Source: Deltaproteobacteria bacterium
GTDB taxonomy: Bacteria; JAGRBM01; JAHCIT01
Direction of reading: 5' to 3'
Length of the DNA stretch: 64,000 nucleotides
Assembly: GCA_026129095.1 (NCBI GenBank)
Contig: JAHCIT010000008.1
Span: 7,021-71,020 of the forward strand
Part shown: positions 19,651-57,593 of the stretch, in pieces
How the letters are laid out: every line of letters starts with the position of its first letter
Numbering within the stretch: the first letter of the stretch is position 1
The notes under the pieces: generated by a model
Told to the model about the DNA's origin: nothing
Databases searched by the model: none
The model's input: only the letters and a program-made list of their open reading frames with translations
Program-made: the position numbers and the translations under genes

Positions 19651-20076
19651 TCATGCCTTGCCGTTCAGCGCGGCGGCCGCCTCGTACCGGTTCCATACTT
19701 CCGGATCCCACAGCTCGATCCGGTTCACGCTGCCGATCGCCACCAGCGAGGACGGCAGCGCCACCTGCCGGCGCACATCCTGCGGAATGAGCAGCCGCCA
19801 CTGCTCGTCGAACTCGGCGTCCACGGCCCTGGCGGTGAGCAGCCGCAGTTTCATTCTTTCCTCGCCGCTCTCGATCACGTTCAGACGGTCGGCGAACTCC
19901 ATCAGCTTCGGCGCATAAGCCGCATACGGGATCAGGTCGAGGCAGGGCATGTTCTGGTCGCGGACGATAAACACCTTCCGCTGCGGATCGCGCTCCAGGA
20001 AGCTGCTCCGCCAGCGGGACGGAAGGGCAATGCGGCCCTTGCCGTCCATGGTGATTTCGTGCTGACCCGTGAACAC
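19651..20076 (-). CDS. mraZ: transcriptional regulator MraZ
   Basis: Track ORF begins at TTG 20107-20109; GTG at 20074-20076 gives N-terminus (M)FTGQHEITMDGKGRIALP, which matches the canonical MraZ N-terminus in length; an in-frame ATG at 20047-20049 is a shorter alternative. Confidence 0.85.
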   Translation of the reverse strand: MFTGQHEITMDGKGRIALPSRWRSSFLERDPQRKVFIVRDQNMPCLDLIPYAAYAPKLMEFADRLNVIESGEERMKLRLLTARAVDAEFDEQWRLLIPQDVRRQVALPSSLVAIGSVNRIELWDPEVWNRYEAAAALNGKA

Positions 20077-20150
20077 TGACTGTCGACACCCTTCCCCTGA
20101 ACTCCACAAGGGACTCCAGGCAGTTTCGAGCCAATGGGATACAGAGGGAT

Positions 20151-20180
20151 TTTATCCCACTTTATTCCACTTTTGTCCAT
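20151..20180 (-). promoter_or_regulatory. candidate MraZ operator: three head-to-tail 10-bp repeats
   Basis: Forward strand TTTATCCCAC / TTTATTCCAC / TTTTGTCCAT; on the coding strand GTGGGATAAA, GTGGAATAAA, ATGGACAAAA; exact 10-bp period; 75-104 nt upstream of the mraZ GTG; a fourth copy at 20353-20362. Confidence 0.5.
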
Positions 20181-20353
20181 TCTCTTCAACTTCGCCCCCG
20201 CTGTCAAGAATTCCCTTAAGTATTTCAGATAGTTATGCATAGAAACGACAACCTTACAGAAACCGAAAGCAACCATATACTGGGCTTATATATGCCGTAA
20301 ACCACAAATTATAGTGGCCAAATATGAAGCAGGAATGAGCGCGTTATGGAGAT

Positions 20354-21448
20354 TTATTCCACTTTGGTGGAAGGAGAGCCGGTCCGGGCGGCGGCGATGC
20401 GCTCATGGATGATGAACGGCCCCACCAGAACGAGCGTGGCGATCTGCTGAACCAGCACGAGCGTGGCGAGCGCGATCAGCTTGGGTTCGGCGATCTCCCA
20501 TGAGGGCGGAAGGAAGTAGATGAGCGCCGCCTCGCGGGAACCGGTGCCAAGGAAACCCGCCGGCACGATCGTGGCAATGCCCAGCACGGCCCAGATGACC
20601 AGCACCTGGTCGGGCGAGATGCCGATGTTCACCGCCCGGCAGAAAAGCCACAGGGCGGCGCCGATCGGCACGAAGGCGAGCAGCGTGAGGACGACGATCC
20701 GGACCCGGTCCATCCGGGTACGGCCGCGAAGCCAGACGCCGATCTGGAAAAGCATCTGCCGCAGCCCCTTGTGGTGGGAGGTTTCGGCCCCTTCCGGGGC
20801 CAGCAGGTAGCGCGGCACCAGCAGGAACCCGGCGAAGATCGCCGCCGGCGCCAGCAGGATGAGCGGCCCGAGCCGGTTCAGCTGCAGGTCAGGATAGCCC
20901 AGCTTCGAGAAGGGAAAGACGACCGACTCCGGCAGCGCGGCGCATCCCAGGCCCAGCACAATGAGCACGCCAGCGGAATCGAAAAACCGCTCGGCGACAC
21001 CGGCGGCGATGGAGGCGGTCCAGGAATGGCCCTCCTTGCGGAGATCCACGCACTTGAGGAAATCGCCGACCCGGCCCGGTGTCACGACGCCCCAGAAGGC
21101 GGCCTTGAGGAAACTGTAGATATGGCGCCCGAACCGGCCTGGTTCCGCCGGGGCTCCCTCGCCCGGATGGGCAAAGACCGTCCAGCGCACCGCCCGGAAC
21201 CCCTGGTAGAACGGTGTCATGGCCATGCCGAGAAGCACCAGCACGAGGTCCGCGCCGCGAAGCTCGGCCATCACCTTGCGGATATCGAACTTGAACAGGA
21301 ACCAGACGAAGATGCCGACGCCGGCCACCTGCACGAACCGCTGGAACACGGGATTATGAAGGAGCCCCTGCTTCTGCGGAAGACCGGCCTCGGCCGTGAC
21401 TTCCACGGAAGCCCCGCCCTCCCCGGCTTTTCCTGAATGTTCAGCCAC
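20354..21448 (-). CDS. polytopic membrane protein, lysylphosphatidylglycerol-synthase TM-region-like (function unknown)
   Basis: 364 aa with about eight hydrophobic segments; family assignment from memory, low certainty; its stop codon lies inside the fourth MraZ-box-like repeat. Confidence 0.6.
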   Translation of the reverse strand: MAEHSGKAGEGGASVEVTAEAGLPQKQGLLHNPVFQRFVQVAGVGIFVWFLFKFDIRKVMAELRGADLVLVLLGMAMTPFYQGFRAVRWTVFAHPGEGAPAEPGRFGRHIYSFLKAAFWGVVTPGRVGDFLKCVDLRKEGHSWTASIAAGVAERFFDSAGVLIVLGLGCAALPESVVFPFSKLGYPDLQLNRLGPLILLAPAAIFAGFLLVPRYLLAPEGAETSHHKGLRQMLFQIGVWLRGRTRMDRVRIVVLTLLAFVPIGAALWLFCRAVNIGISPDQVLVIWAVLGIATIVPAGFLGTGSREAALIYFLPPSWEIAEPKLIALATLVLVQQIATLVLVGPFIIHERIAAARTGSPSTKVE

Positions 21449-21536
21449 GCGCCCGCCGCCTGTCCCGGCCTCTCACCGGTCCGGCCAATAAGCGCACGGC
21501 GGCGGGGAATGCAAGGAGAAACACGCCGCCGTCCGC

Positions 21537-23057
21537 TTATCCCCTCGGCGCGATCATGTCGTACCAGACCTTCTTCGAGCGGGTGCCGATAAGGTCGATA
21601 TGGAGGTGCTTGGTTTCGAGATAGGCCTCGAGCCCTTCCTCGCCGAACTCGCGGCCGATACCCGACTGCTTGTAGCCGCCGAAGGGAGCCTTGACGTTCA
21701 GCATGTGCCACTCGTTGATCCAGACCGTCCCGGTGCGGAGCCGCTTGGCGACAGCGAGCGCCTTGTCGTTCGATTTTGACCAGACGCCGCCGCCAAGGCC
21801 ATAGATCGAGTCGTTGGCCAGCGCGACGGCCTCGTCCACGTCCTTGTACTTGAGCACCGACAGCACCGGCCCGAATATCTCCTCCTGGGCGATCTTCATG
21901 TCGTTCTTCACCGCCACGAACACGGTGGGCTCGATGAACCAGCCCTTCTGGAACGCCTCGCCCGCAGGCTTGCCACCACCGGTGACGGCCTCGGCCCCCT
22001 GCTCGCGTCCGCTCTGGATGTAGCCCAGTATCCGCTTCTGCTGCCGCTCGCTCACGACCGGCCCCATCTGCGTGGTCATCTGGGCCGGATCGCCCAGACG
22101 GATTTTCCGGGTCTTTTCCGCCAGCTTCTCAACGAACTGGTCGTGGAGTTTCTCGGGCAGGAACAGCCGGGTGCCCGATTCGCAGGCCTGGCCGGCATGG
22201 AAGAAGGTCGCCCACATGGAACCGTCGATGGCCTGGTCGAGGTCGGCATCCTCAAGGACGATGTTGGCGCTCTTGCCGCCGCACTCCAGCGTCACGCGCT
22301 TCAGCGTCCCCGAAGCCACCTCCATCACCCGGCGGCCGATGGCCGTCGAGCCAGTGAAGGCGACCTTGTCGATGCCAGGATGGGAGCTGATCCGCTCGCC
22401 CGCCTCGGCCCCGCCCGGCACGATGTTGATGGCCCCGGCCGGTACACCCGCTTCGCCGCAGAACCGGGCGAACTCCATCGCCGTAGACGGGGTTTCCAGT
22501 GCCGGCTTGATGACCACCGTGCAGCCGGCGGCGAGCGCCGGGCCGATCTTCCAGCAGAACATCACCAGAGGGAAGTTCCACGGGATGATCTGCCCCACGA
22601 CGCCGACCGGCTCCTTGTAGACGTAGTTGGCCGACATGATGGGTTTTTCGAACAGTTCCAGCGGACGCATGGCGTTCAGACGCCGGGCGCATTCGGCGTA
22701 GTATTTCAGCGTGGCGATACACTGGCTCATGTCGCTCATCGCCTTCAGCATGATCGAGCCCGAATCGGCCGCCTCCAGCTTGGCGAGGTCGCTCAGGTTC
22801 TTCTGGACCAGCCCGGCCAGCCGGTCGAGTATCGCGCCGCGGTCGGCACCAGTAAGCTTTTGCCACTCCTTCGACTCGAACGTCTTGCGGGCGGCCGCGA
22901 CGGCCCGGTCCACGTCGGCCGGTCCCGCCAGCGCGCAGGTCGCCACCAGTTCCTGGTTGAAGGGATTGCGGGACTCGAACACAGCCCCGTCGGCTGCATC
23001 CACAAACTCCCCGCCAATGAACAGCTTGTACTGCCTTGCGTCCGCCATGCGCGTCAC
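21537..23057 (-). CDS. NAD(P)-dependent aldehyde dehydrogenase
   Basis: 506 aa; ALDH blocks FTGSTAIGRRV and catalytic-Cys block LECGGKSANIV. Confidence 0.92.
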   Translation of the reverse strand: MTRMADARQYKLFIGGEFVDAADGAVFESRNPFNQELVATCALAGPADVDRAVAAARKTFESKEWQKLTGADRGAILDRLAGLVQKNLSDLAKLEAADSGSIMLKAMSDMSQCIATLKYYAECARRLNAMRPLELFEKPIMSANYVYKEPVGVVGQIIPWNFPLVMFCWKIGPALAAGCTVVIKPALETPSTAMEFARFCGEAGVPAGAINIVPGGAEAGERISSHPGIDKVAFTGSTAIGRRVMEVASGTLKRVTLECGGKSANIVLEDADLDQAIDGSMWATFFHAGQACESGTRLFLPEKLHDQFVEKLAEKTRKIRLGDPAQMTTQMGPVVSERQQKRILGYIQSGREQGAEAVTGGGKPAGEAFQKGWFIEPTVFVAVKNDMKIAQEEIFGPVLSVLKYKDVDEAVALANDSIYGLGGGVWSKSNDKALAVAKRLRTGTVWINEWHMLNVKAPFGGYKQSGIGREFGEEGLEAYLETKHLHIDLIGTRSKKVWYDMIAPRG

Positions 23058-23149
23058 TCCTTAACTTCCCGTCCGGAACCGCCCGCGGTTTCCGTCCGCA
23101 GGTGACGCTAAACCGGAGCGGGAAGTAACGGCAACAGGAAATCCGATAT

Positions 23150-23611
23150 TTACCCGGTCCGCTCCGCGGGAACCTCCGGTGGCGTCTCCGGCCTCGCATC
23201 CCGGCCGGACCCGGCGCGTTCCTTCCGGAGATCGTCCACGGCCAGCTGGAGGAGGGCCGCCTCCTGGGTGAGGTTCTTCACGCGGTTGGTGAGCTGGGAT
23301 ATCCGGATGGAAAAATGGATCGCCAGCACCACGAGGAAAATGACCGAGAAGATCATCAGCGTACTGGTGGAATCGACCGCCCCGATCCAGCCGGTCAGCG
23401 CAAGCAGCCAGTTGTAGCGGAACACCAGCACAAAGAGCGCAAAGCCGGTGATAATCCACAGCCACGCATACTCGATCCGCATCGTCCGCCTGCGGACCAG
23501 TTCGAACACCGTCACGAGGAGCCCCACGACCACGATGGTGGCGAACACGGTCTGCCGGGGCGTGAGGCCGTCGGCACCCAGCGCTGCGGTTACCATGAGC
23601 GGTCCCGTCAT
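23150..23611 (-). CDS. small integral membrane protein (DUF2304-like), translationally coupled to GT2
   Basis: Track ORF trimmed to ATG 23609-23611 (MTGPLMVTAAL...), which overlaps the GT2 stop TGA 23608-23610; three to four hydrophobic segments. Confidence 0.6.
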   Translation of the reverse strand: MTGPLMVTAALGADGLTPRQTVFATIVVVGLLVTVFELVRRRTMRIEYAWLWIITGFALFVLVFRYNWLLALTGWIGAVDSTSTLMIFSVIFLVVLAIHFSIRISQLTNRVKNLTQEAALLQLAVDDLRKERAGSGRDARPETPPEVPAERTG

Positions 23612-24342
23612 GGCTTGGCGTCCTCCGGCAGGCGGTCCCGCCTCAGCACCATCAGGATCATCGACAGCGTCATGTGGAACACATAGTAGAGCGGCTTCAG
23701 CCCGGCGTGCATGGAAATCTTCTCGGGCGGCGAGCCGTGCATGACCACCGGCGTCTCGACCACCTTCAGTCCCGCCCGGTGGCACATCACGATGGCGTCG
23801 CCGTCCGGGTAGTCGTCCGGGTAGCGGTCGCCGGTCACCAGTTGCATCGCCCGGCGGCCATAGGCCCGGAACCCGCTGGTGGGATCGCTCACATTCCGGC
23901 GGATCAGAAGACGCGTCAGCCAGGCAAAGACCTTCGCCCCGATGCGGCGGACGACCGACGTGTCATAGCGGGGCCGCTCCTTCGAGTACCGGGTGCCGAT
24001 GACCAGATCGGCGCCAGAGAGCTGCATCTGCGCAAGCAGCGTCCGGATTTCCTGCGGCTCGTGCTGGCCGTCGGCGTCGCAGGTAACCGCCACGGTGAAC
24101 CCCTCGCGCCAGGCCCACTTGAGTCCGGTCTGGACAGCAACGCCATAGCCCGCGTTGAGACCATGCCTGCAGATGCTGACACCGGCCATCCTCGCCCGCT
24201 CTCCGGTGCCGTCCCACGAGCCGTCGTCCACGACCAGTACCGCCGCCTCGGGCAGTTCATGGCGGACCGCCTCCAGCACCTTCCGTATCCGGGCAGCCTC
24301 GTTCCACGCGGGAACCACGACGACGATCCGCTCAGGCCGCAT
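23608..24342 (-). CDS. glycosyltransferase family 2, Dpm1/polyprenyl-phosphate-sugar-synthase-like
   Basis: Trimmed to ATG 24340-24342 (MRPERIVVVVPAWNE...), 6 nt after the GT4 stop; GT2 blocks VLVVDDGSWDGT and TCDADGQH. Confidence 0.85.
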   Translation of the reverse strand: MRPERIVVVVPAWNEAARIRKVLEAVRHELPEAAVLVVDDGSWDGTGERARMAGVSICRHGLNAGYGVAVQTGLKWAWREGFTVAVTCDADGQHEPQEIRTLLAQMQLSGADLVIGTRYSKERPRYDTSVVRRIGAKVFAWLTRLLIRRNVSDPTSGFRAYGRRAMQLVTGDRYPDDYPDGDAIVMCHRAGLKVVETPVVMHGSPPEKISMHAGLKPLYYVFHMTLSMILMVLRRDRLPEDAKP

Positions 24343-25597
24343 GGGAGCGCTCCCCGTAGAAACGAAGCAAACCGGCGGCATCGTCCGAAATCGACCGGAC
24401 CTTCCCGCGGGCGGCTCCCAGTCCGCCGAGTACCGGAGTCCCGGCGGCCCATTCGCCGAGCGCCCGCGCCCATGCACCCACATCACCCGGCGTCACCAGT
24501 ATCCCGTCCTCTCCGTCCGTCACCAGTTCTTTCAGGCCACCGATGCGGCTCGCCATCACCGGAGTGCCGGCCAGAAATGCCTCCTGCACGACGAGCGGCG
24601 AGTTTTCCGGCCAGATGCTCGGCACCGCCAATAGGTCGGCACGGGCAAGCACCGGAGGAACTTCCTCGTGCGGGACCGGTCCGCAGTCTGTCACCCGCGG
24701 TCCGGCGAGAAAACGCGCGCAGTCGTCACGGTAGCCGCCCCGCCCGTGGTAGTCGCTCCACCTTCCGTACAGTTCCAGGGAAAGCTCCGGCGCGCCGAGC
24801 CGCGAAAATGCTTCCAGCAGTATGTGGGCGCCCTTCGAGTACATCAGCGACCCGATGAACACGATCCGCCTGCGGCCCGGTGGCGCCGGGCGGGCGGACT
24901 GCCCCGGCAGCGGAAAACCGTACCGGGCGGCCACGGATTTCCCGACCGGGACCAGCCCCAGCTCCACGTGACGGGCGGCGAGGTCTTCGGAGGGCGAAAT
25001 GAAAAGGTCCACGCGCTTCAGTCCGGATTCCAGCCTGACCCAGCGGTTGTCCACGCGGGCCGTTCCTGAACTCCACCGGTGCTTGTAACGGTGGCGCCAG
25101 TAGGCGGCCCCCGTGAAGCCCAGGCACCGGGCGCAGCGAGAGGCCTCCGGGCCGTCGCACAGGTTCAGGTCCGAATCGAGAAGCTGTCCCCGTGCACAGT
25201 AGAGCCAGTGATCGGCGAGCGTCATGGCGACAAAGGGACCGGGGCGGGGAACACCGGCCAGCCACCCGGCGGAGAGACCCGACAGGTGGAGCAGATGGAT
25301 GGCGCCGGGCCGTTCCGATTCCAGAAGCCCCGATATCTGGCGGTCGGTCATGGGGTCATCGTGCCAGGTGTCGAATCCCATCCGTTCGGCGGGCGGGGTT
25401 GCAAGGAACCGCACATCCAGGCCGTCAACGGTTTCCCGGCTCCATGAATAGGCGGGCCGGTGCAGGGTCCGGTCCACCGTGACCACCAAAACCTCCGCCC
25501 CCTGCCGCTTCAGTTCATGGGCGAGTGTGCGGCAGTAGACCTCCGTCCCCCCGGCCGAGGGGTCGCGGAACTGGTGGATGAAGAGCATGACTTTCAT
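24332..25597 (-). CDS. glycosyltransferase family 4 (GT-B fold)
   Basis: 421 aa; N-terminus MKVMLFIHQFRDPSAGGTEVY and C-terminal EAFLAGTPVMAS...GGLKELV region typical of GT4. Confidence 0.85.
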   Translation of the reverse strand: MKVMLFIHQFRDPSAGGTEVYCRTLAHELKRQGAEVLVVTVDRTLHRPAYSWSRETVDGLDVRFLATPPAERMGFDTWHDDPMTDRQISGLLESERPGAIHLLHLSGLSAGWLAGVPRPGPFVAMTLADHWLYCARGQLLDSDLNLCDGPEASRCARCLGFTGAAYWRHRYKHRWSSGTARVDNRWVRLESGLKRVDLFISPSEDLAARHVELGLVPVGKSVAARYGFPLPGQSARPAPPGRRRIVFIGSLMYSKGAHILLEAFSRLGAPELSLELYGRWSDYHGRGGYRDDCARFLAGPRVTDCGPVPHEEVPPVLARADLLAVPSIWPENSPLVVQEAFLAGTPVMASRIGGLKELVTDGEDGILVTPGDVGAWARALGEWAAGTPVLGGLGAARGKVRSISDDAAGLLRFYGERSHAA

Positions 25598-26511
25598 GCA
25601 CCCGCCTCCGGCACTTCCTCTATATAGGTGGCGTAGTGGCGGCCGGCCGTCCGCTCCAGCCCGCCGATCAGGCCGCCGACGTACTGGCCGAACACCTCGC
25701 CCACTGCCTCAGGGAACCGGTGTTCCCGCTGTCGAACCAGCGTGGCAACCCCTTTCAGGGCGCCCGCCAGCGACGGCACGGTGCGAAGGCCGTACACGCG
25801 GGAGAGCAGCCGGTGGAGCCTGACGCCCCGCTCGAAATCGGCGCGGCCGTCGAGATCGTGTGCATGGAAAACGGCGGCCGAGGGTTCGTAGGCGAACTTC
25901 CACCCGCGCCCGGAGAGGATGCGGGCCCACTCGATGTCCTCGGCGATCTCCACCAGCGGAAACGGGCGGTCCAGCCAGGCCTTCAGGCGGATAATTCCGG
26001 CCACGCTGTCGAAACGGACAACACCGGCCGCCCGGAGCGGATCGGCCGCATCCGGGTTTGCCGGGTAATGGGCGTCCACACGGCGGCGGACCGGCTCCGG
26101 GGTCGAATCGAAAGGCATCTGTCTGGCAAATACACCCGCCAGCCGCTCATCCGCCATGATTCGCCGCACGAGGGCCGAAAGGCAGTCTTTTTCCGGCAGG
26201 GCATCCTGGGAAAAAAGGGCCACCAGTTCGGCCCCGCACAGGGCGATTCCGAGGTTGCGTGTCCAGCCGTGGTTGAACCTGCCCGGCTCCAGCCGGATCA
26301 CGGTGAAATCAGAACCGGCCTTCCGGGCTTCCGGAGCGATTACCGTCACCAGCAGGCGGTACAGGTCCGGCGCGGCCGACGAATCGACGCAGACGATCCT
26401 CGCCGGTACGAGACTCCCCGCAAGCAGGGCCCGGACCAGCCGGGCCGTGCCGCGAAGGTCGTCGCAGACGGGAATGACCACCCCCGGACGGGCTGGAACT
26501 GAAGACGGCAT
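25594..26511 (-). CDS. glycosyltransferase family 2-like
   Basis: 305 aa; VVIPVCDDL...IVCVDSSAAPD...RFNHGWTRNLGIALCGAELVALFSQDALP consistent with GT-A fold; 4-nt overlap with the GT4 gene. Confidence 0.75.
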   Translation of the reverse strand: MPSSVPARPGVVIPVCDDLRGTARLVRALLAGSLVPARIVCVDSSAAPDLYRLLVTVIAPEARKAGSDFTVIRLEPGRFNHGWTRNLGIALCGAELVALFSQDALPEKDCLSALVRRIMADERLAGVFARQMPFDSTPEPVRRRVDAHYPANPDAADPLRAAGVVRFDSVAGIIRLKAWLDRPFPLVEIAEDIEWARILSGRGWKFAYEPSAAVFHAHDLDGRADFERGVRLHRLLSRVYGLRTVPSLAGALKGVATLVRQREHRFPEAVGEVFGQYVGGLIGGLERTAGRHYATYIEEVPEAGA

Positions 26512-26619
26512 ACGTTGGTTACGTCCGCCGTCCAGTATAGCTGCATTTTAATGGGAACCAGATGCGGGAGAATTAATGATGGACTCCCCCGCCCGGCTTA
26601 AATCCGGTTCATCCGGCCG

Positions 26620-26835
26620 TCAGTCGATCTCGGCAACCGGGTCGCCTTCCTTCACGGAATCGTTTTCTTTCACGAGAATTTTCGATATGGTCCCGGCGCA
26701 CGGGGCCTCGACTGGCATCTCCATTTTCATGGATTCGAGGATCACGACTTCCTGGCCTTCGGAAACCTGATCGCCCGGCTTGACGACGATCTTCCAGACG
26801 ACCCCGGTAATATGCGCATTGACAGGTGTACTCAT
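26620..26835 (-). CDS. free-standing biotin/lipoyl-attachment (biotin carboxyl carrier-like) domain protein
   Basis: 71 aa; biotinylation-type motif in VVILESMKMEMPVEAP; ATG at 26833-26835. Confidence 0.8.
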   Translation of the reverse strand: MSTPVNAHITGVVWKIVVKPGDQVSEGQEVVILESMKMEMPVEAPCAGTISKILVKENDSVKEGDPVAEID

Positions 26836-28887
26836 TTGGAAACGAACTCCCCTCTCGACGACGGCGTGAATAGACCACAGGCACCGGAATCTGTCAACGA
26901 GACGGCGAACGAAAACGCCGGCCCCGCCGAATCAGGTTCAGGCGGATCGCAGCCCCAAAGCAGCAGGCTGCTCATCACGGGCGGACTCGTTGTGCTGCTG
27001 GGCCTTGTGTGGTTTGCCTGGTCAACGGTATTTCCCGGCGGATTCCATCTCGACGATCTGCCGAACATCACCAAGAACAAGAGGCTCGCCGCCGTCGTCC
27101 AGGGCAAGGGCTCCATCCAGTCGTATGCACTCCAGAGCCCGGCCAAATACCGTCCCCTCCCGTACGTGACCTTCGCACTCAACGCCAAGCAGCTCAGCAT
27201 GAAGGGCCGCAAGGTGGAGTGGAAGGCAGAACCCTTCCTGAAGACGAACATCGGTATCCACATGGCGGCAGCCGTGATGGTGTTCCTTCTCCTGAGGACG
27301 CTATTGCGGGTTCATGCGCCTGGCTGGACGCCCCTCGTGCGGGACGGCTCGGCCCTGCTCGGGGCCGCGATGTGGGCACTGAACCCGGTCCAGACGGCGG
27401 CGGTCAGCTACACCGTGCAGCGCATGGCGCTCATGGCGACGCTCTTCATCGTGATCTGCCTGTGGAGCTGGGTCCGGTGGAGGGAATCGGGCAAGATAGT
27501 ATTCGCCGTGACCGCCCTTGCCGCCTTCACCCTCGGCATGGCCTCCAAGGAAATCGCGGCGACGGCCGTGCTGGTGATCGTGCTCTACGAATGGCTCCTC
27601 AGGCCGGAACGGAAGCTGTGCGCGGCGGGCTATACCCTCATCACGGTCATGGCCGCGGCCCCGGCGGTGCTGTTCTACTTCTACATGCAGGCCTCCCCGG
27701 TCCACTGGGCCTCGGCCGGCGATCCGCTTGCCAACCGCGACTACAACTCGGTCGAGCGGGTGATGACCCAGGGCCGTGTGCTCTGGCACTACGTATCGCT
27801 GTGGCTGGCTCCCCTGCTGGGCCGTCTGCACCTTGAATATGCCGTCCCGGTGTCCCGCGGCCTGCTTGATCCGGCGACGACGGTACTCGCCTGGCTTGCC
27901 TGGGCCGGCGCCGTGGCGGGGGCCATCGCCCTGCGCAGGCGCAGCCCGCTCGCCGCATTCGGCGTCCTGTCGTTCCTCGCCTTCGCTTCCGTGGAAAGCT
28001 CGTTCCTGAACCTCGTGATGGCCTTCCAGTACCGCCTGTACTTGCCGTCGCTGGCACTGGCCGGCCTTGTGGCCGGAGCCGCCGGATGGTTCGTCTCGCG
28101 GCAGGGCCGCAGCCCGGCCCTCCTCGCCGTGGCGGCCGTCGCCATTCTGGCGTTCTATGTGCCGGTGGCACAGGCACGGAACCGCGAGTGGTCGTCATCC
28201 ATCGGCCTGCTGACGGCGGATATCGGCCGCGTCCCGCTCGGCGCACGGTCGTACTACAACCTCGCCCGGAAGATCGACAAGAAGGGCGACCAGGAGCAAA
28301 AGCTGTCGCTGCTGGAGAAGGCCCTGGAGCTGGACTACGGCGTCGATGCCTGTCTCGAAGCCGCCTCGGTGCGGTCCCGCAAGCCGGGCATGGTCGAGCG
28401 GGGCGAGAAGATGTTCCAGACCTGCGAGGAGCGGTACGGCCTTTCGACCGGGCTGCTGCTCAACTGGGGCGGCTTCTACAAGAACGCCGGGGACGAAGCG
28501 GCCGCACGGGCCCGCTACCAGCGCGGCCTCGACCTGGATCCCGAGGAAGCACGGCTGCACGCCAACTACGGCTCGTCGCTGTACCGGGAAGGCCGGATGG
28601 ACGAGGCCGAGGAACGGCTCCACCATGCCCTCTCCCTGAACCCCAGGCTCGCCTCGGCGCATGTGTCCCTCGGCATGCTGTATTTCCGCAAGGGCGAGGA
28701 CGAGAAGGCCAACGAGCACGTGAAACAGGCGAACCGTTACGGGTTCCGCATACCGGCGGGCCTCGTCCGCATGCTGGCCAAGCAGGGTGTGAAAAAACCG
28801 GGGGCAGGACCGGACAAGGCCGGGACGGCTGACCCTGATCCGGCCGATACCGGCCACGATGATGACGATGGTGATCTGACGCCCTGA
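26812..28887 (+). CDS. multi-pass membrane protein with C-terminal TPR repeats (TMTC/PMT-like putative GT-C glycosyltransferase)
   Basis: 691 aa; about 11 hydrophobic segments in the N-terminal 450 aa; acidic loop motif GGFHLDDLPNI; C-terminal TPR-like repeats; ATG 26812 overlaps the divergent biotin-domain gene by 24 nt, so the true start may be downstream. Confidence 0.75.
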   Translation: MRIDRCTHLETNSPLDDGVNRPQAPESVNETANENAGPAESGSGGSQPQSSRLLITGGLVVLLGLVWFAWSTVFPGGFHLDDLPNITKNKRLAAVVQGKGSIQSYALQSPAKYRPLPYVTFALNAKQLSMKGRKVEWKAEPFLKTNIGIHMAAAVMVFLLLRTLLRVHAPGWTPLVRDGSALLGAAMWALNPVQTAAVSYTVQRMALMATLFIVICLWSWVRWRESGKIVFAVTALAAFTLGMASKEIAATAVLVIVLYEWLLRPERKLCAAGYTLITVMAAAPAVLFYFYMQASPVHWASAGDPLANRDYNSVERVMTQGRVLWHYVSLWLAPLLGRLHLEYAVPVSRGLLDPATTVLAWLAWAGAVAGAIALRRRSPLAAFGVLSFLAFASVESSFLNLVMAFQYRLYLPSLALAGLVAGAAGWFVSRQGRSPALLAVAAVAILAFYVPVAQARNREWSSSIGLLTADIGRVPLGARSYYNLARKIDKKGDQEQKLSLLEKALELDYGVDACLEAASVRSRKPGMVERGEKMFQTCEERYGLSTGLLLNWGGFYKNAGDEAAARARYQRGLDLDPEEARLHANYGSSLYREGRMDEAEERLHHALSLNPRLASAHVSLGMLYFRKGEDEKANEHVKQANRYGFRIPAGLVRMLAKQGVKKPGAGPDKAGTADPDPADTGHDDDDGDLTP

Positions 28888-28895
28888 CGGTACGC

Positions 28896-29777
28896 CTAGA
28901 GTCCGAGCCGGTCCAGAACGCCGGTGGCGTTCGCCACGCGGCCGAGCGGCATGACATGAACGCCGCGGAACCGCTTCAAATGAGGCTTGGCGATCTCGCA
29001 GACCACTTCGAGTCCCACGCGGGACTCGGCCTCCGGTGAACCGGCCTTTTTCAGCCGTTCCAGCGTTTCGGCGGCGACGGAAATCTCCGGCACGTTTTCG
29101 CCCATGTAGGCGGCGAACTTCCAGGACTTGAGCGGCAGGATGCCGAGGATGACCGGCGCGTTTACCGGCTCCAGTGCCTTCAGGAACCGCTCCATCGCCT
29201 TCACCGAATAGACGGGCTGGGAGATGACGAACTGGCCGCCCGCTTCCAGCTTGCGGTGGAGCTGCTCCATCTCCGCCTCCAGCTTCGGCGCGGCCGGGTT
29301 CACCGTGACGCCGATCCGGAAGCTCGTCGCCCGGTTGATCTTCCCGCCTTCGAAATCCTCGCCCCGGTTGAGCCGCGAGATGGCGGCGGCGAGCTTCACC
29401 GAGTTGAACTCGAACACCGCCTTCGCCTTCGGGAAATCGCCGATCTTCGGCGGATCGCCGGTCACCAGGAGGAGGTTGCGGACTCCCAGCGCATCGTCCC
29501 CGAACAGGTCCGACTGGATGGCGATGAGGTTCCGGTCACGGCAGGAGAAGTTGATGATCGTCTCGCAGCCGAACTTCTGCTGGATGAGGTGTGCCGCCAT
29601 GCCCGGATTGATCTTGAGCCGGGCCATGGGCGAATCGGTGAGGTTCAGGGCATCAAAACGGGCAAGATACTGCTCGCACTCGGCGTACGTCTTCGTGAGG
29701 TCGGGGCCCCGCGGAATCGTCAGCTCTACCGAGGTGGTGAACCCGCCCCGGCCGAACTTCTCGCTGAACCTGCCCAT
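28896..29777 (-). CDS. metF: methylenetetrahydrofolate reductase
   Basis: 293 aa; overall MTHFR-family similarity; 21 nt downstream of the MIPS gene on the same strand. Confidence 0.82.
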   Translation of the reverse strand: MGRFSEKFGRGGFTTSVELTIPRGPDLTKTYAECEQYLARFDALNLTDSPMARLKINPGMAAHLIQQKFGCETIINFSCRDRNLIAIQSDLFGDDALGVRNLLLVTGDPPKIGDFPKAKAVFEFNSVKLAAAISRLNRGEDFEGGKINRATSFRIGVTVNPAAPKLEAEMEQLHRKLEAGGQFVISQPVYSVKAMERFLKALEPVNAPVILGILPLKSWKFAAYMGENVPEISVAAETLERLKKAGSPEAESRVGLEVVCEIAKPHLKRFRGVHVMPLGRVANATGVLDRLGL

Positions 29778-29798: not shown

Positions 29799-31187
29799 TC
29801 AGCTCCCGCGCTGCCAGTATTCGTCGCCCAGGTGGGTGATGATCGGCGCGCCGACCAGTTCACGGATGGTGTTCTCGAACTTCTCGCGCTGCACGAAGAA
29901 GTCGTGCTGGACCGGCACACCCTCGGCCACCGGCTGCGGGCTCTTGGAGTAGAGGCCGAGCCATTCCTGGACACTCCCCATTCCCTTGCGGCGGGCCCAG
30001 TCGAGGAACCGGGCGAGGTCGATCACCATCGGCGCGGCGAGGATCGAGTCGCGGCAGAAGAACGAGAAGTCGATGATCATCGGGTATCCGAGGAACCCCT
30101 GGAAATCGACGCGGTCCAGCGCGTGCTTGTCGTCGCCGGCGATCTTGTAATAGCTGATGAGAACCGGCTGCTCGATCTCGTAGCCCAGGATGTTGGCCGC
30201 CTGGTTCGACTTGGACTTCTTCTTCGTCTGGAAGGAGCCGGGCTCGTCGAGCACCAGGCCGTCCTTGTTGCCGATCCAGTTGTTGCTGGCCCAGCCCATG
30301 ATCTTCAGTTCCTTGCCCTTGAAACCCGGCATGATGACCGACTTCATCCAGGTCTGGCCCGTCTTGCCGTCGTTGCCGCTGAACGGAACGTTGTTCTTGC
30401 GGGCGAGCTCGCGCAGGGCCGGAATCTCGGCGCCCTGTGACGGCGAGAAGTTGTGGTGCGGCACGCCCAGCCGGAACGCGGCGTAGATGTAAACCTGCGA
30501 GGGGGCGATGTCGGGCGAGTTCTTCACCAGTCCCTTCTCGAACGCGGCCAGCGTCTGGTGCACCGGCTTTACCTCGTGGTACCGCTCGGTCGATCCGACA
30601 TAGACCACGACGGCGCGGTCGCAGCGGTTCTTCTTCATGAAGGTCTGGATGTCCTTCATGATCTGCTCGGCCGCCTTCATCTTGTTCTTCGCCTTGATCT
30701 GGATGTCGGCCTTCAGGTTCTTCACATAGGCGTTCTCGAAGTAGCCCGGCATCGGCTTGCGGCCCTTGAGCGCACCCTTCACCTGGTCCACCAGCGCCGG
30801 ATCGAGCACCTTGGCGTAGCGGGCCGCCTCATAGGCGTCCATCCGGTTGATATCCCAGCCACCCACCACCATGTCGCCGAAATCGGCAACGCTCACGATG
30901 TCGTTGATCTTCGCGAAGTTGTCGCGTGCGCCGATACGGATGGTGCCGGTCTGCGACAGCATGCCGTGCTTGTCATCGGCGTCCGCCAGTCCGCGCTTGA
31001 ACAGCTCGATCCCCACCTGCACGGTCGTGGCGATGGCCCCGTTGCAGCCCACCAGCAGGATGGCCAGCTTGCCGAGCTTTTTCTTCTCGTCGCTGGCCGT
31101 GCGCGTCAGTTTGCCGAGGTTGACGGTGTTGGGGGTGCGGGGTGCTGCCGAACGGGCTGTCTTGCGCGCGGCGGTGGCCTTGGCCAT
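29799..31187 (-). CDS. myo-inositol-1-phosphate synthase (inositol-3-phosphate synthase)
   Basis: 462 aa; NAD-binding N-terminus LAILLVGCNGAIATT and conserved MIPS core blocks; ATG at 31185-31187. Confidence 0.88.
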   Translation of the reverse strand: MAKATAARKTARSAAPRTPNTVNLGKLTRTASDEKKKLGKLAILLVGCNGAIATTVQVGIELFKRGLADADDKHGMLSQTGTIRIGARDNFAKINDIVSVADFGDMVVGGWDINRMDAYEAARYAKVLDPALVDQVKGALKGRKPMPGYFENAYVKNLKADIQIKAKNKMKAAEQIMKDIQTFMKKNRCDRAVVVYVGSTERYHEVKPVHQTLAAFEKGLVKNSPDIAPSQVYIYAAFRLGVPHHNFSPSQGAEIPALRELARKNNVPFSGNDGKTGQTWMKSVIMPGFKGKELKIMGWASNNWIGNKDGLVLDEPGSFQTKKKSKSNQAANILGYEIEQPVLISYYKIAGDDKHALDRVDFQGFLGYPMIIDFSFFCRDSILAAPMVIDLARFLDWARRKGMGSVQEWLGLYSKSPQPVAEGVPVQHDFFVQREKFENTIRELVGAPIITHLGDEYWQRGS

Positions 31188-37010: not shown

Positions 37011-37787
37011 CTAGCCCGCCCTCGACGGCTCGGGCCACCCCAGCTCACGCCGGACAAAGGCGAGTATCTCCTGGGCGAGTTTCTCCTTGTGGTCGGTCAG
37101 GCGGTGGTCGCCGCCGGGAATCTCGACCAGCTTCACCCGCCCGCCAGAGGCGGCAGCCACCCGGCGGGAATCGTCCACCGGCACCTGCTCGTCCCTCGTT
37201 CCGTGCAGGATGAGGGCGGGCACCCTCAGCCGGGAAGCCAGGGAGTCGTGCCCGTAGCCCTGCCAGTCGGCGGCGAGATCCCACGTAAAATCGAGCTTGA
37301 GCCACGGGCTCTCGATCCGCAGGCTGTTGGTGTCGCGCCACTCGCGCACGCGGCGCTCACCGACACCCGCCATGATGTTGTCAACGAACCGGAAGGCCGG
37401 GGCGATCAGTGCCAGACCAGCGATTCCCTCTGGCTCCTCGACGGACGTCCAGGCCGACGTGAGCCCGCCGAGCGAGGAGCCGATCAGCACCACCCGGCCG
37501 GTCCACTCTTCTTTCCGGCGGATGTAGCCGAGAAAGCCCGCCAGATCGTCAATCTGCCGGGTCAGTGTCAGCGTGCGTATTTCCCCTTCGGAACCCCCGT
37601 GACCGGTCGTGTCGAGCGCCGCATAGCCAAAGCCCCGCTGGCCGAAAAATTCGGCGAAGTAGCGGGCCTTGTCGCCGCGGCGGTCCGAACCCAGCCCGTG
37701 CACAAAGACAAAGCCGAAATCATGCGCCGGCCCGCTGATGTCGTATTCGAGCAGCCGGCCGCTTACCTGCAGGGAACCGGACTTCAT
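37011..37787 (-). CDS. alpha/beta-fold hydrolase
   Basis: 258 aa; nucleophile elbow GSSLGG; HGLGSD oxyanion region; start overlaps the upstream SGNH gene stop. Confidence 0.8.
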   Translation of the reverse strand: MKSGSLQVSGRLLEYDISGPAHDFGFVFVHGLGSDRRGDKARYFAEFFGQRGFGYAALDTTGHGGSEGEIRTLTLTRQIDDLAGFLGYIRRKEEWTGRVVLIGSSLGGLTSAWTSVEEPEGIAGLALIAPAFRFVDNIMAGVGERRVREWRDTNSLRIESPWLKLDFTWDLAADWQGYGHDSLASRLRVPALILHGTRDEQVPVDDSRRVAAASGGRVKLVEIPGGDHRLTDHKEKLAQEILAFVRRELGWPEPSRAG

Positions 37788-39025
37788 TGGCCTTCCTCCA
37801 CTGGCTGCGGCCGGAGTCCGGGCCAGAACTCGCTGACGAATGTCTCGGCCACGATCCGGTTTCCGGCGGCCGTCCAGTGCCCATCCCTTGGGAAATATAC
37901 CCAGGTGTCTCCGGCCTCGCGGCGGATCAGGTGTTCCAGAAGGCCAAGCACCGGCACGTTTTCCACGGCTCCCCAGGATTTCAGCCCGCGGTCCAGCGCC
38001 CAGAGGTCGAACTCGTCCGGGTTCAGCCTCATGAGTTCGACCGTCCGCCCCCAGTCATCCTTCACGTAACGGCCACTGGTCTGCATCTCCCACTTGTGGG
38101 GAACGACCACGACCGCGAACTGCGCCCCCGTGGCGCGGACTTCGGCAGCATAAAGGGACAGGATGGCCTTGAGAAGCCGGAGCGCGGAGTCCAGCACCTC
38201 GGGGCGTTCCTTCCGGTACAGCATCAGCACGTCATCGTAACGGCCCCGCGCTTCACCGGAAGCGCGGAGACTCCGCAACCGGCCCTTGAAGAACGCGTAC
38301 AGGTGAGAGCGGTTTCTGAGGAAACGGTCAACCGGAAGCAGTCTGGGCACCGTACGACTGCTCTCCCGTGCCGGAACAAGGTCCAGGCCACCATCCCCGT
38401 TCAGCACAAACCGGGGCTTGGGGAAATACCGGAACTCCTGGAGGATATCGATCAGGTCATTGGGATAGACCACTTCGACCACGAGCCGGGCCTTCAGTGC
38501 CTCTCCATGCCGCCGCCAGTGAAGCAGATGCTGATCGGTACCGGTCCCCGGCACGCCCAGGTTCAGCCAGATGTGGTCACCAAGGCTATTCGCCACCAGA
38601 TCGAAGGCCCGCCCGGACTCTTCCACGCCGTGCCCCCACACAAACGAATCCCCGGTGACAACCACCACCGGCTTGCCGGTATCCAGAAGCGGCCCGAACT
38701 CCGGGGCCCGGTAACCATCCGAATTGGTTTGGACTGTGACCGAGAACTCCGGCGCAGAGTTGATGAACCTGACATTGGGCCGTAGGACCAGTCCCCGGTC
38801 CGGATCACCGGCGTATGGACTCTCCAGGCCGGCTGGCTCGATCATGCGGATGCTGGTGTCCACGGACAGTGCCGCGTCCTGGGGAGCGGCGATCCGGAAA
38901 AATCCCTCCAGCACGAGCAGCAGGAGAAGCGTGCTTCCCAGCATGGCGGCCAGACCAAAAAGGACCCGCCGCCGCACGGGATGCTTCGCCGCATTGGCGT
39001 CCGCCAGCGCAGTTCCGCGGGCCAT
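37784..39025 (-). CDS. SGNH/GDSL-type hydrolase or acyltransferase (AlgX/AlgJ-like), membrane-anchored
   Basis: 413 aa; N-terminal TM helix; block I VVVTGDSFVWGHG. Confidence 0.72.
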   Translation of the reverse strand: MARGTALADANAAKHPVRRRVLFGLAAMLGSTLLLLLVLEGFFRIAAPQDAALSVDTSIRMIEPAGLESPYAGDPDRGLVLRPNVRFINSAPEFSVTVQTNSDGYRAPEFGPLLDTGKPVVVVTGDSFVWGHGVEESGRAFDLVANSLGDHIWLNLGVPGTGTDQHLLHWRRHGEALKARLVVEVVYPNDLIDILQEFRYFPKPRFVLNGDGGLDLVPARESSRTVPRLLPVDRFLRNRSHLYAFFKGRLRSLRASGEARGRYDDVLMLYRKERPEVLDSALRLLKAILSLYAAEVRATGAQFAVVVVPHKWEMQTSGRYVKDDWGRTVELMRLNPDEFDLWALDRGLKSWGAVENVPVLGLLEHLIRREAGDTWVYFPRDGHWTAAGNRIVAETFVSEFWPGLRPQPVEEGQ

Positions 39026-39026
39026 T

Positions 39027-39329
39027 TCAGAAGATGGTGTAGATAAACGGTGCGACGGCAGTGCCCTGCGTCATCACCAGCAGGAACCCGATGGCCAGCA
39101 GCACGATCACGATGGGCGCCATCCAGTAGAGCTTGCGCTCCATCAGGAAGTCCTTGAACTCCGCCAGGGTACCGGCCCTCTCCTTCGCATCCCGCACGAA
39201 GCCGCCGCCCTCGCCCGCCTTCGCGAACGGGCTCTCTTCCTTGCCGGTTTCCGGTGTCTGGTTGCTGGAATCAGTCATGACGTCTGGATTACTCCGGTCC
39301 CGCCGGGGTGGCAAGGCTTCCTGCCGCAC
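39027..39329 (-). CDS. tiny membrane protein, DUF5989-like (SxtK-like)
   Basis: C-terminal EFKDFLMERKLYWMAPIVIVLLAIGFLLVMTQGTAVAPFIYTIF matches my recollection of the DUF5989 consensus; true start probably the internal ATG (MTDSSNQ...); 2 nt after the carbamoyltransferase stop. Confidence 0.6.
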   Translation of the reverse strand: MRQEALPPRRDRSNPDVMTDSSNQTPETGKEESPFAKAGEGGGFVRDAKERAGTLAEFKDFLMERKLYWMAPIVIVLLAIGFLLVMTQGTAVAPFIYTIF

Positions 39330-39331
39330 CG

Positions 39332-46930: not shown

Positions 46931-47908
46931 TTGGCACTCGATCCGCATCAGTATCCGCTTGAATGGACCGCTCCCGTCCCCCCGGTGGAAGACGCCCGGC
47001 GGTGGTGCCAGCGCATGGCGGCAAGCCACTACGAGAACTTCCCCGTGGCGAGCTGGATACTGGGCGGCCGCAGGCGGCACCATGTGGCTGCCGTATACGC
47101 CTTTGCACGGACCGCCGACGACCTGGCCGACGAGCCGGACTATCCGGAACCCGGTGTGACCCCCGAAAAGCGTCTGGCCAACCTGGACCAGTGGCAATCC
47201 CACCTGACGCTGGCGTTTGAGGGCCGGGCATCCCATCCGGCATTTGTCGCGCTCTCGGCCACGGCCCGGGAACTCGGCCTACCGAAAAACCTGTTTGAAG
47301 ACCTGCTGTCGGCATTCCGCCAGGACGTGATGAAGTCCCGGTATGAAAACCTGGATGAGGTGCGTGACTACGCCCGCCGGTCCGCGAATCCGGTCGGGAG
47401 GCTCGTGCTCCGCATCTGGGGGATCACGGATCCCAGGGCCGACGCCTGTTCGGATGCCATCTGCTCGGCCCTCCAGCTCGTGAACTTCTGGCAGGACGTG
47501 TCGAAGGATTATGTCGAGCGCGACCGCATCTATCTCCCCCGCGACCGGATGGTGCACCATGGGGTATCCGAGACTGAACTCCGTGCGGGACCGGTGACTG
47601 CCGGCTACCGGAACCTGCTGGAGGAAATGAACCAGACCGCCGCACAGCTTTTCGAGGCGGGCCGTCCCCTGCCCTCGATGCTTCCGTTCCCCCTGTCACT
47701 GTGGCTCCGGTGGGTCTGGCTTGGCGGCACGGCCATCGGAAGGCGGCTCCGGCTGGCCGGGTACGATGTCTTTTCCCGGCGCCCTGTCCTCACGGGGCCC
47801 GACATGGTGAAGCTGCTGCTGCGGGGCCTGTTCCCCCTGGGCGGACGCCCTGCCCTGCCGTCCGGCCGGATGCTGGCAGCGGCCACGGTATCCAAGGAGG
47901 CTGCCTGA
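46931..47908 (+). CDS. hpnC: squalene/phytoene-synthase-family enzyme, HpnC-like (hydroxysqualene synthase)
   Basis: 325 aa; HYENFPVAS block; Asp-rich motifs ADDLADE and QDVSKD; TTG start per track, with internal GTG/ATG alternatives; stop overlaps the hpnD ATG (TGATG). Confidence 0.72.
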   Translation: MALDPHQYPLEWTAPVPPVEDARRWCQRMAASHYENFPVASWILGGRRRHHVAAVYAFARTADDLADEPDYPEPGVTPEKRLANLDQWQSHLTLAFEGRASHPAFVALSATARELGLPKNLFEDLLSAFRQDVMKSRYENLDEVRDYARRSANPVGRLVLRIWGITDPRADACSDAICSALQLVNFWQDVSKDYVERDRIYLPRDRMVHHGVSETELRAGPVTAGYRNLLEEMNQTAAQLFEAGRPLPSMLPFPLSLWLRWVWLGGTAIGRRLRLAGYDVFSRRPVLTGPDMVKLLLRGLFPLGGRPALPSGRMLAAATVSKEAA

Positions 47909-48753: not shown

Positions 48754-48755
48754 TC

Positions 48756-52645: not shown

Positions 52646-52878
52646 CCGTAACTCCCTTTCAGTGTTGACGCGCATCCGGCTACAGGGGGCCGCAGACCGG
52701 ATGACGGCGGGCAGCCTATGCCTGCCGCGTGGCGGAATGATGGAAACCGTGTGACGGGGACGTGACAAGCACCGGAACGGTCACCATAAGGGCCTTAGCG
52801 GCCTCTGGAGGCACCGTGTTACGGATCATGGACGCCGGAGGGGGTTTCCCCCTAGAATCGTTCCAAGATGGCCGACAG

Positions 52879-57566: not shown

Positions 57567-57593
57567 GGACTCCGGGGGAGTACCTTAAGAAGC

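Follow-up and report, generated by a model that had tools for sequence, protein, structure and literature searches.

A gene block predicted for extracytoplasmic glycosylation in an uncultured deltaproteobacterium: a short GT2-DUF2304 pair beside a TM-TPR protein of predicted GT-C fold

Main finding

The gene block described here lies at 23150-28887 of a 64,000-nucleotide stretch of DNA (the window); contigs in the metagenome-assembled genome (MAG) of an uncultured "Deltaproteobacteria bacterium" are identical to it. It consists of a four-gene run on the minus strand and a divergent open reading frame (ORF) on the plus strand at 26812-28887, identified from the ORF table together with Pfam and NCBIfam scans. 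The run encodes a short glycosyltransferase of family GT2, a small DUF2304 membrane protein, a GT4 glycosyltransferase and a second GT2-like enzyme (GT2b). The divergent ORF encodes a protein with transmembrane (TM) helices and a tetratricopeptide repeat (TPR) domain, called here the TM-TPR protein.

We read the block, with a probability of about 0.65, as a three-component system for extracytoplasmic glycosylation in which the donor is a polyprenyl-phosphate sugar. The reading is built on the structure of the genes and the domains they encode, on the GT-C fold seen in a predicted structure, on the conservation of motifs and on the associations found in gene neighbourhoods. The block is a new instance of known three-component periplasmic glycosylation and not an orthologue of the TMTC, PMT or TfpW systems. 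An initial annotation of the same DNA, made from the letters alone, had proposed a periplasmic glycosylation pathway fed by lipid-linked sugars and had named what would speak against it (no likeness to GT-C together with no conserved acidic loop, or genes that do not stay together in other genomes). The functional proposal holds, and none of these contrary findings was obtained.

The TM-TPR protein

The polytopic membrane domain of the TM-TPR protein has the GT-C fold in the predicted structure, and an acidic motif, GGFHLDDLPNI, is present in its first loop, which is predicted to be extracytoplasmic. The protein is assigned to GT-C on the predicted structure, because by sequence it matches neither a Pfam GT-C family nor a solved structure. 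In Pfam the ORF matches TPR families only, and residues 1-483 are without any match even at E = 10; the full-length family profile, run against PDB sequences, gave matches dominated by TPR proteins. About 11 hydrophobic segments, an acidic-loop motif and then TPR repeats had been read from the sequence at the start, and the AlphaFold model, the hydropathy and the TPR matches all agree with this. The family searches proposed at that time found Glycos_transf_2, DUF2304 and TPR in the block, and PMT and PMT_2 were not matched by the window protein.

A word-indexed search provided 39 homologues. Residues are numbered here on the 691-aa form, in which the acidic pair is D81/D82 (D63/D64 are the same residues in the shorter numbering). 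D81 and D82 of the GGFHLDDLPNI motif are invariant in 37 aligned homologues, and so are P192, K246, Y327 and P334, while R114, N146, H150, W188, R204, R408, Y410 and R479 are at least 90% conserved in the same alignment. Among the distant representatives (about 60-82 sequences) D81 is again invariant and D82 at least 90% conserved, with R114, H150, P192, R204, K246, Y327, P334 and R408 invariant as well. Further conserved pairs are R114/P115, K246/E247 and R408/Y410, along with the spaced motif Y327-x6-P334. The DD pair and about ten other polar residues are thus kept across sequences which are only 21-32% identical overall. A loop without conservation among homologues had been put forward as a ground for dropping the proposal; the pair is invariant, so that ground falls away. 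The DD pair is presumed to be catalytic or metal-binding, and the TPR domain is presumed to be the acceptor-binding module.

The short loops rich in lysine and arginine (LRPERKLC, LRRRS and WRWRESGK) all lie on one side of the membrane, as read from the model helices and hydropathy, and the opposite side carries the DD loop, NP(192), K246/E247, Y327-x6-P334, R408/Y410 and the TPR domain. The predicted N-in, 11-TM topology puts most of the conserved residues in outward loops or at the outward ends of helices. The positive-inside pattern on the model helices therefore places the HLDD loop outside, in the periplasm, which was the side the initial annotation had asked topology prediction to confirm. 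It fits an active site and a TPR domain that face the periplasm in an N-in protein.

The GT2-DUF2304 pair

The sequence of the short GT2 predicts a GacI/PpgS-type synthase that makes a polyprenyl-phosphate sugar, and the DUF2304 protein is, by family membership, its membrane activator partner of the GacJ/Rv3632 type. GacJ of Streptococcus pyogenes and Rv3632 of Mycobacterium tuberculosis are DUF2304 proteins which bind and stimulate GacI and PpgS, and these make GlcNAc-P- or GalNAc-P-polyprenol for a periplasmic GT-C enzyme (bioRxiv 10.1101/180810). The layout typical of the GacI/GacJ pair, a short GT2 gene followed immediately by a DUF2304 membrane protein gene, is found in the window with a 4-nt overlap.

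The best NCBIfam family of the GT2 is PpgS at 1.6e-34 (NF058614, 119.3 bits against an equivalog cut-off of 370), followed by weak matches to PgfS, ArnC, AglJ and dolichyl-phosphate hexose transferase. Its nearest solved relatives in PDB are the Pyrococcus dolichol-phosphate mannose synthase (2.2e-11) and ArnC (1e-5). The DxD motif (D89/D91) is invariant among homologues, and relatives number at least 4,998 at E up to 1e-20, spread over many phyla. Conservation of the pair was assessed in 80 metagenome loci seeded with the GT2 alignment, in which DUF2304-like ORFs were sought with an iterated hidden Markov model (HMM); such an ORF directly follows the GT2 gene in about 70 of them.

Association of the TM-TPR gene with the pair

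Three other MAG species have the entire arrangement as well, with the TM-TPR gene on one strand and the biotinyl carrier, GT2b, GT4, GT2 and DUF2304 genes on the other. The right flank in these relatives is formed by MTHFR and inositol-1-phosphate synthase (Ino1) genes; the left flank differs between the window and the relatives, and the glycosyltransferase operon and the TM-TPR gene stay together. Identities within this close clade are about 86% for Ino1, 72-83% for GT2, 65-75% for DUF2304, 56-61% for GT4 and GT2b, and 44-50% for the TM-TPR protein. Taken alone, this co-conservation is weak evidence, because the neighbouring housekeeping genes are equally syntenic.

The association was followed into other lineages through 36 GT2-DUF2304 loci of at least 5 kb. 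A large polytopic protein is encoded somewhere in 25 of these, and in about 10 the immediate neighbour of the pair is a polytopic protein of the PMT_2, DUF2142 or DUF7657 family; among the scanned immediate neighbours, PMT_2 was found in L118, L164, L131, L129, L091 and L157, DUF2142 in L136, L163, L159 and L157, and DUF7657 in L133. In two loci, L099 and L141, a gene of the TM-TPR family itself overlaps the end of DUF2304 (HMM 2e-91 and 8e-81), and both proteins have TPR repeats. Over 620 residues the protein of L099 shares 25% identity with that of the window, and FHFDD is present in it. Two further loci (L091 and L126) have members of the TM-TPR family within a few kb of the pair.

At 1950-8548 of L099 (contig RCNG010000923.1, metagenome) the genes for GT4, a GT2 of 317 aa, the short GT2, DUF2304 and the TM-TPR protein form one co-directional operon, equal in gene content to the window block. 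The GT4 and 317-aa GT2 of this operon were considered as orthologues of the window GT4 and GT2b and rejected; L099 belongs to a distant lineage and the likeness is one of analogy only.

In the reverse direction, a Dpm1-like GT2 gene lies within 10 kb in about 26 of 75 distant TM-TPR loci, in several cases adjacent, and L022 and L046 have a DUF2304 gene too. In our judgement, made without a formal control, this frequency is far above chance for such a density of GT2 genes. No GT-C-like gene other than the TM-TPR gene was found close to the pair in the window. The co-conservation that the initial annotation had expected is thus seen in the close clade, and the module also occurs with a GT-C of this family in the unrelated loci L099 and L141.

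The TM-TPR family

The family is large. A profile of the TM region alone matched 136,762 cluster representatives (50% clusters) at E up to 1e-3; with the limit at 1e-30 there were 67,141. When one genome per GTDB species was scanned for a pattern taken from a closer alignment than the divergent TM-only one, at least 548 relatives stood among the 600 pattern matches listed; they are mostly Desulfobacterota (Thermodesulfobacteriota), with Nitrospirota and others, and several MAGs give multiple contigs. Some loci, including those of sulfate-reducer MAGs, carry tandem arrays of up to six TM-TPR paralogues, which suggests diversified acceptor or donor specificities. Four to six paralogues in tandem were recorded in L014, L022, L046 and L064, which are Desulfobacterota and Lentisphaeria MAGs.

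The naming of members varies: a few are called "protein O-mannosyl-transferase" (JGI), others "tetratricopeptide repeat protein" (NCBI). Among 21 relatives scanned, three reach TMTC_DUF1736, all under the cut-off and in the loop that joins TM7 to TM8 (best 2.8e-5; 21-24 bits against a cut-off of 27 in the two that were rescanned), and two reach PMT_2. In Pfam scans of 61 distant representatives, TPR families were the only ones among the 25 most frequent families.

Relatives also occur in pilus loci. In one subfamily (P0005, L005, L018, L043, L058 and L087) the TM-TPR gene stands directly after pilB-pilC, and in P0007 it is near pilB, pilC and pilin genes. In P0022 it has a pilin gene on either side; a GT2 and an LPG_synthase_TM gene come next, and pilR-pilS are close by. 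The TM-TPR gene of L006 likewise has pilin genes on both sides, and this locus also encodes a GtrB-like GT2 and an LPG_synthase_TM protein. The loci of the pilB-pilC subfamily and L006 are probably cassettes for pilin glycosylation. A search started from the pilin-adjacent relative P0022 returned proteins of Woeseiales and other gammaproteobacterial MAGs and no Pseudomonas entry.

Gene layout

The features are collected in Table 1. The five ORFs and domains of the initial annotation were recovered in the ORF table and Pfam scans at the coordinates it had given. The ATGA at 23608-23611, in which the GT2 stop and the DUF2304 start overlap, was read directly in the sequence, and the ORF table likewise gives the 4-nt overlap of GT2b and GT4 (25594-25597). 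The GT2 gene had been said to start 6 nt past the GT4 stop, which is wrong: the two genes overlap by 11 nt, because the GT2 ATG (24342-24340) is upstream of the GT4 stop (24334-24332), and separate gene calls on the same DNA concur.

Table 1. Features of the gene block and of its surroundings in the window
Feature	Coordinates	Strand	Remarks
TM-TPR glycosyltransferase, GT-C fold (predicted structure)	26866..28887	+	11 TM helices and C-terminal TPR domain
GGFHLDDLPNI motif	27037..27069	+	first extracytoplasmic loop (predicted); DD = 27052-27057
TPR domain	28198..28785	+	residues about 463-658; predicted periplasmic
Biotinyl/lipoyl-carrier protein, 71 aa	26620..26835	-	ESMKME motif; Biotin_lipoyl
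GT2b, second GT2-like glycosyltransferase, 305 aa, soluble	25594..26511	-	Glycos_transf_2 3.2e-8 (weak)
GT4 glycosyltransferase, 421 aa	24332..25597	-	Pfam GT4 families ~1e-25
Short GT2, 244 aa	23608..24342	-	Glycos_transf_2 3.4e-23
DUF2304 small membrane protein, 153 aa	23150..23611	-	DUF2304 1.7e-20; 73.7 bits against the 25.5-bit Pfam cut-off
LPG_synthase_TM ("flippase-like") membrane protein	20354..21448	-	LPG_synthase_TM 1.4e-25

A biotinyl-carrier ORF between GT2b and the TM-TPR gene had been overlooked; it overlaps the ATG at 26812. The ORF of the TM-TPR protein is indeed open from this ATG, and the NCBI model begins at 26836. The true start is probably the GTG at 26866 (673 aa), because the close homologues begin with MNRPQDPEAV, which aligns with VNRPQAPESV of the window protein. 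The ORF first described at 26812-28887 therefore stands and its start does not. With the GTG start, about 30 nt separate the divergent TM-TPR and biotinyl-carrier genes, as they do in the relatives. In a scan for promoters and terminators over 20000-29500 the counts did not differ from chance, and no operon boundaries emerged.

Proposed pathway

From these data we infer the donor chemistry, the topology, the coupling of the two transcription units and the acceptor. At the cytoplasmic face the GT2, held at the membrane and stimulated by the translationally coupled DUF2304 protein, would move one sugar from a nucleotide sugar onto undecaprenyl phosphate, a step proposed because of the homology to GacI/GacJ and PpgS/Rv3632. 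The lipid-linked sugar would be flipped across the membrane, for which the LPG_synthase_TM protein is a weak candidate. The TM-TPR GT-C, with its DD loop and TPR domain in the periplasm, would then pass the sugar on to an acceptor bound by that TPR domain. Its use of a polyprenyl-phosphate sugar donor is suggested by the adjacent GT2 and DUF2304 genes and by the neighbourhood statistics. Most likely this acceptor would be a protein, either secreted or in a membrane, and would be O-glycosylated on Ser/Thr in the way that TfpW acts on pilin and TMTCs act on cadherins; a glycan is a possible alternative. For TPR-bearing GT-Cs a protein acceptor is favoured because relatives lie in pilus loci and because of the examples of TfpW and the TMTCs.

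Comparison with known systems

By its description, TfpW of Pseudomonas aeruginosa Pa5196/PA7 is a close likeness; this D-arabinofuranosyltransferase acts on pilin and is reported to have 646 aa, its N-terminus in the cytoplasm, 11 TM helices, a TPR domain in the periplasm, an ArnT-like fold, an essential DDx motif and a motif of the Y-x6-P type (bioRxiv 10.1101/2020.04.19.049825). TfpW and the window protein share a length of about 650 aa, the N-in topology with 11 TM helices and a periplasmic C-terminal TPR domain (predicted for the window protein), a DDx in the first periplasmic loop, a GT-C domain (modelled on ArnT for TfpW, seen in the predicted structure here) and, as predicted for the window protein, a polyprenyl-phosphate-linked donor. 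A Y-x6-P motif precedes the TPR domain in TfpW, and the window protein has the invariant Y327-x6-P334. Distant relatives of the window protein also occupy the pilin-adjacent position typical of tfpW. In contrast to tfpW, the window gene is not beside pilin, pilB or pilC genes, and its donor module would be a hexose or N-acetylhexosamine (HexNAc) synthase of the GacI/GacJ type, whereas that of TfpW is the DprE1/E2 arabinose pathway.

TMTC1-4 are eukaryotic protein O-mannosyltransferases of CAZy family GT105, with homologues "even among prokaryotes" (PMC7801869). The window protein resembles them in its 11 TM helices, its N-in topology and its non-cytoplasmic TPR repeats (topology predicted here), in the acidic pair of the first loop, in a GT-C fold related to ArnT and PMT, and in the predicted use of a lipid-phosphate sugar donor from a Dpm1-type GT2. 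It differs in having no TMTC_DUF1736 match at E = 10, the matches of its relatives being under the cut-off; the donor here need not be mannose, and the cadherin-domain acceptors of TMTCs are absent from bacteria. The Pfam PMT and PMT_4TMC domains and the luminal MIR domain of PMT enzymes (GT39) are not found in the window protein. The resemblance to TMTC and PMT proposed in the initial annotation is accordingly confirmed for the 11-TM and TPR architecture and not for membership in Pfam TMTC_DUF1736, PMT or PMT_2.

With GacI/GacJ/GacL of S. pyogenes and PpgS/Rv3632/Rv3779 of M. tuberculosis the block shares a short GT2 with an adjacent DUF2304 activator. In those systems the product of the pair is a polyprenyl-phosphate HexNAc, whose sugar a GT-C passes on outside the cytoplasm, and it is polysaccharides that they decorate. 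The predicted GT-C of the window belongs instead to the TM-TPR family with its protein-interaction domain; the window GT2 also scores under the PpgS equivalog level.

The general logic of a polyprenyl-phosphate sugar synthase, a flippase and an extracytoplasmic GT-C is that of GtrA/GtrB/Gtr* and ArnC/ArnT (PMC11127046), and it has been demonstrated for protein O-glycosylation with the streptococcal GtrB/PgtC2 and PgfS/PgfM1 (PMC12041528). The block would follow the same logic, and its GT2 weakly matches PgfS and ArnC. However, genes for GtrA, SMR, MATE or Wzx flippases are not in the block, and its synthase is of the short, DUF2304-dependent type, unlike the GtrB type which carries its own TM helices.

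The initial annotation had held the bacterial TMTC-like member to be the novel component. This claim has to be given up: the family counts 136,762 representatives, JGI names exist for it, and TfpW, of the same architecture, has been studied experimentally. The TM-plus-TPR architecture is already known in bacteria, because TfpW has been described with 11 TM helices, a periplasmic TPR domain and a DDx motif.

Weighing the alternatives

Several observations weigh against the proposed pathway. The window protein is in no Pfam GT-C family (TMTC_DUF1736, PMT or PMT_2), and the TM-only family profile had zero matches among PDB sequences at E up to 10. The GT2 is far under the PpgS equivalog cut-off (119 against 370 bits), which supports the enzyme class and not the sugar. 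The TM-TPR gene is on the opposite strand, with the biotinyl-carrier gene between it and the glycosyltransferase operon, and the flanking MTHFR and inositol-phosphate synthase genes are kept in the only genomes which have the whole block, so that its conservation could be plain synteny. About two thirds of the distant TM-TPR loci are without a Dpm1-like GT2 within 10 kb. A flippase gene conserved with the block was not found, nor was a pilin or other obvious acceptor gene found near it.

The alternative that survives best, though we think it improbable at roughly one chance in five, concerns the acceptor. GT4 and GT2b, together with enzymes encoded elsewhere, would build a surface polysaccharide or glycolipid, to which the TM-TPR GT-C would add a side-chain sugar supplied by GT2 and DUF2304 in a GAC-like (group A carbohydrate-like) manner; GacL on polyrhamnose and Rv3779 on arabinogalactan are the precedents. 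Both characterised GT2-DUF2304 pairs do supply GT-Cs that modify glycans, two further cytoplasmic glycosyltransferases are encoded in the block, the operon of L099 joins an analogous GT4 and GT2 to the GT2, DUF2304 and TM-TPR genes, and many GT2-DUF2304 pairs adjoin DUF2142 or PMT_2 proteins without TPR. However, the block is without an initiating phosphoglycosyltransferase, a polymerase and a Wzx or ABC exporter, and outside the close clade GT4 and GT2b are not associated with the pair. The TPR domains of GT-C enzymes have so far been linked to protein acceptors (TfpW, TMTC), and the occurrence of relatives in pilus loci also argues for a protein.

Rather less probable is that the genes are adjacent without being coupled, the donor of the TM-TPR protein being made elsewhere, the pair feeding another GT-C and the gene order being simply inherited. 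The opposite orientation of the two units around an unrelated biotinyl-carrier gene would agree with this, as would the synteny of the surroundings, MTHFR and Ino1 among them, in the three or four genomes that alone share the block and the two thirds of distant loci which have no nearby Dpm1-like GT2; moreover, up to six paralogues in one array cannot each own a synthase. Against it, L099 and L141 carry a GT-C of the same family directly after DUF2304, GT2-DUF2304 pairs are commonly found beside a GT-C-type protein, and the left flank varies while the glycosyltransferase operon and the TM-TPR gene remain together.

A more far-reaching version of the pathway, which we rate as unlikely, is that an oligosaccharide is built on polyprenyl monophosphate. 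GT2 and DUF2304 would add the first sugar, GT4 and GT2b would extend it, and the TM-TPR GT-C would move the whole chain at once onto proteins of the periplasm. Bacteria would then have an equivalent of the AglJ/AglB route of haloarchaea, performed by one of about 10^5 largely unstudied TMTC-like enzymes of prokaryotes, a family from which the eukaryotic TMTCs may descend.

Finally, it is very improbable that the TM-TPR protein is a non-enzymatic scaffold or chaperone, for example in pilus or envelope assembly, with a retained GT-C-like fold: the sequence is indeed unmatched by Pfam GT-C models and solved structures, and its TPR domain resembles TPR lipoproteins that serve as assembly factors, such as PilF, PilW and Tgl, but the DD pair is invariant and about ten polar residues are conserved, mostly on the outward side, which is the pattern expected of an active site, and mutation of the DDx motif abolishes TfpW function (bioRxiv 10.1101/2020.04.19.049825).

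Other genes of the block and of the window

The nearest solved and NCBIfam matches of GT4 are MshA and PimA, and these cover the generic C-terminal GT4 domain only. MshA and PimA act on inositol-phosphate or phosphatidylinositol acceptors, and a myo-inositol-1-phosphate synthase gene (29799-31187, minus strand), syntenic in all relatives, is 4 kb from GT4. This could be a glycosyl-inositol link or a coincidence, and it is kept as a lead only, because the matches cover the generic C-terminal domain. GT2b had zero matches among PDB sequences and is found, at 56-60% identity, in the close clade only. GT4 and GT2b were considered as general partners of the GT2-DUF2304 pair and rejected, the 80 GT2-seeded loci having given one weak GT2b match. 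They are clade-specific additions, which could build an acceptor glycan or extend the lipid-linked sugar.

Biotin_lipoyl was found for the biotinyl carrier in the gene calls of the window's contigs and of the relatives, and its position is conserved. It is 97-99% identical in the relatives, compared to 44-86% for the other proteins of the block. A partner carboxylase or decarboxylase is not in the block.

Pfam and NCBIfam scans recognised no flippase (GtrA, SMR, MATE, Wzx) in the block. The LPG_synthase_TM gene is 1.7 kb downstream; its NCBIfam match to "flippase-like domain" (1.3e-5) is under the cut-off, and the family also adjoins TM-TPR genes in L006 and L057. Its product is a tentative candidate for flipping the lipid-linked sugar. 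It was rejected as an established part of the block, being missing from it in the close relatives L001 and L003. There, a TfoX_N-domain gene follows DUF2304 (L001 5915-6313, L003 5030-5491); the same position in the window is taken by an aldehyde dehydrogenase gene and the LPG_synthase_TM gene.

The window gene does not stand beside a major pilin or pilus assembly genes as in the TfpW type. The sole pilus-type gene encodes an ATPase with MshEN plus T2SSE domains (PilB/MshE-type) at 57558-59399 on the plus strand, 29 kb away. A glycerol-3-phosphate dehydrogenase gene follows this ATPase gene, with no PilC or pilin gene beside it.

Elsewhere in the window, a squalene/phytoene synthase gene and a flavin amine-oxidase-type gene (46931-50105 and 52762-54435) represent a squalene or hopanoid-type pair, with a B12-binding radical SAM enzyme encoded nearby after them. 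On the minus strand at 37011-41083, a carbamoyltransferase, a 100-aa ORF, an AlgX-like SGNH protein and an alpha/beta hydrolase are encoded in a run, which may be a second, separate glycan-modification cluster.

Significance

The locus alone is an ordinary variation on a known theme. Its wider value lies in the TM-TPR family, whose membrane domain is not modelled by Pfam and which is represented experimentally, as far as we found, by its putative member TfpW alone, and in the possible relation of this family to eukaryotic TMTCs. The block is a compact and testable example that ties a synthase module of the GacI/GacJ type to the TM-TPR GT-C family. If the proposed pathway is true, this clade of uncultured, Desulfobacterota-like bacteria would glycosylate a component of its envelope, probably one or more proteins, by means of a lipid-linked sugar.

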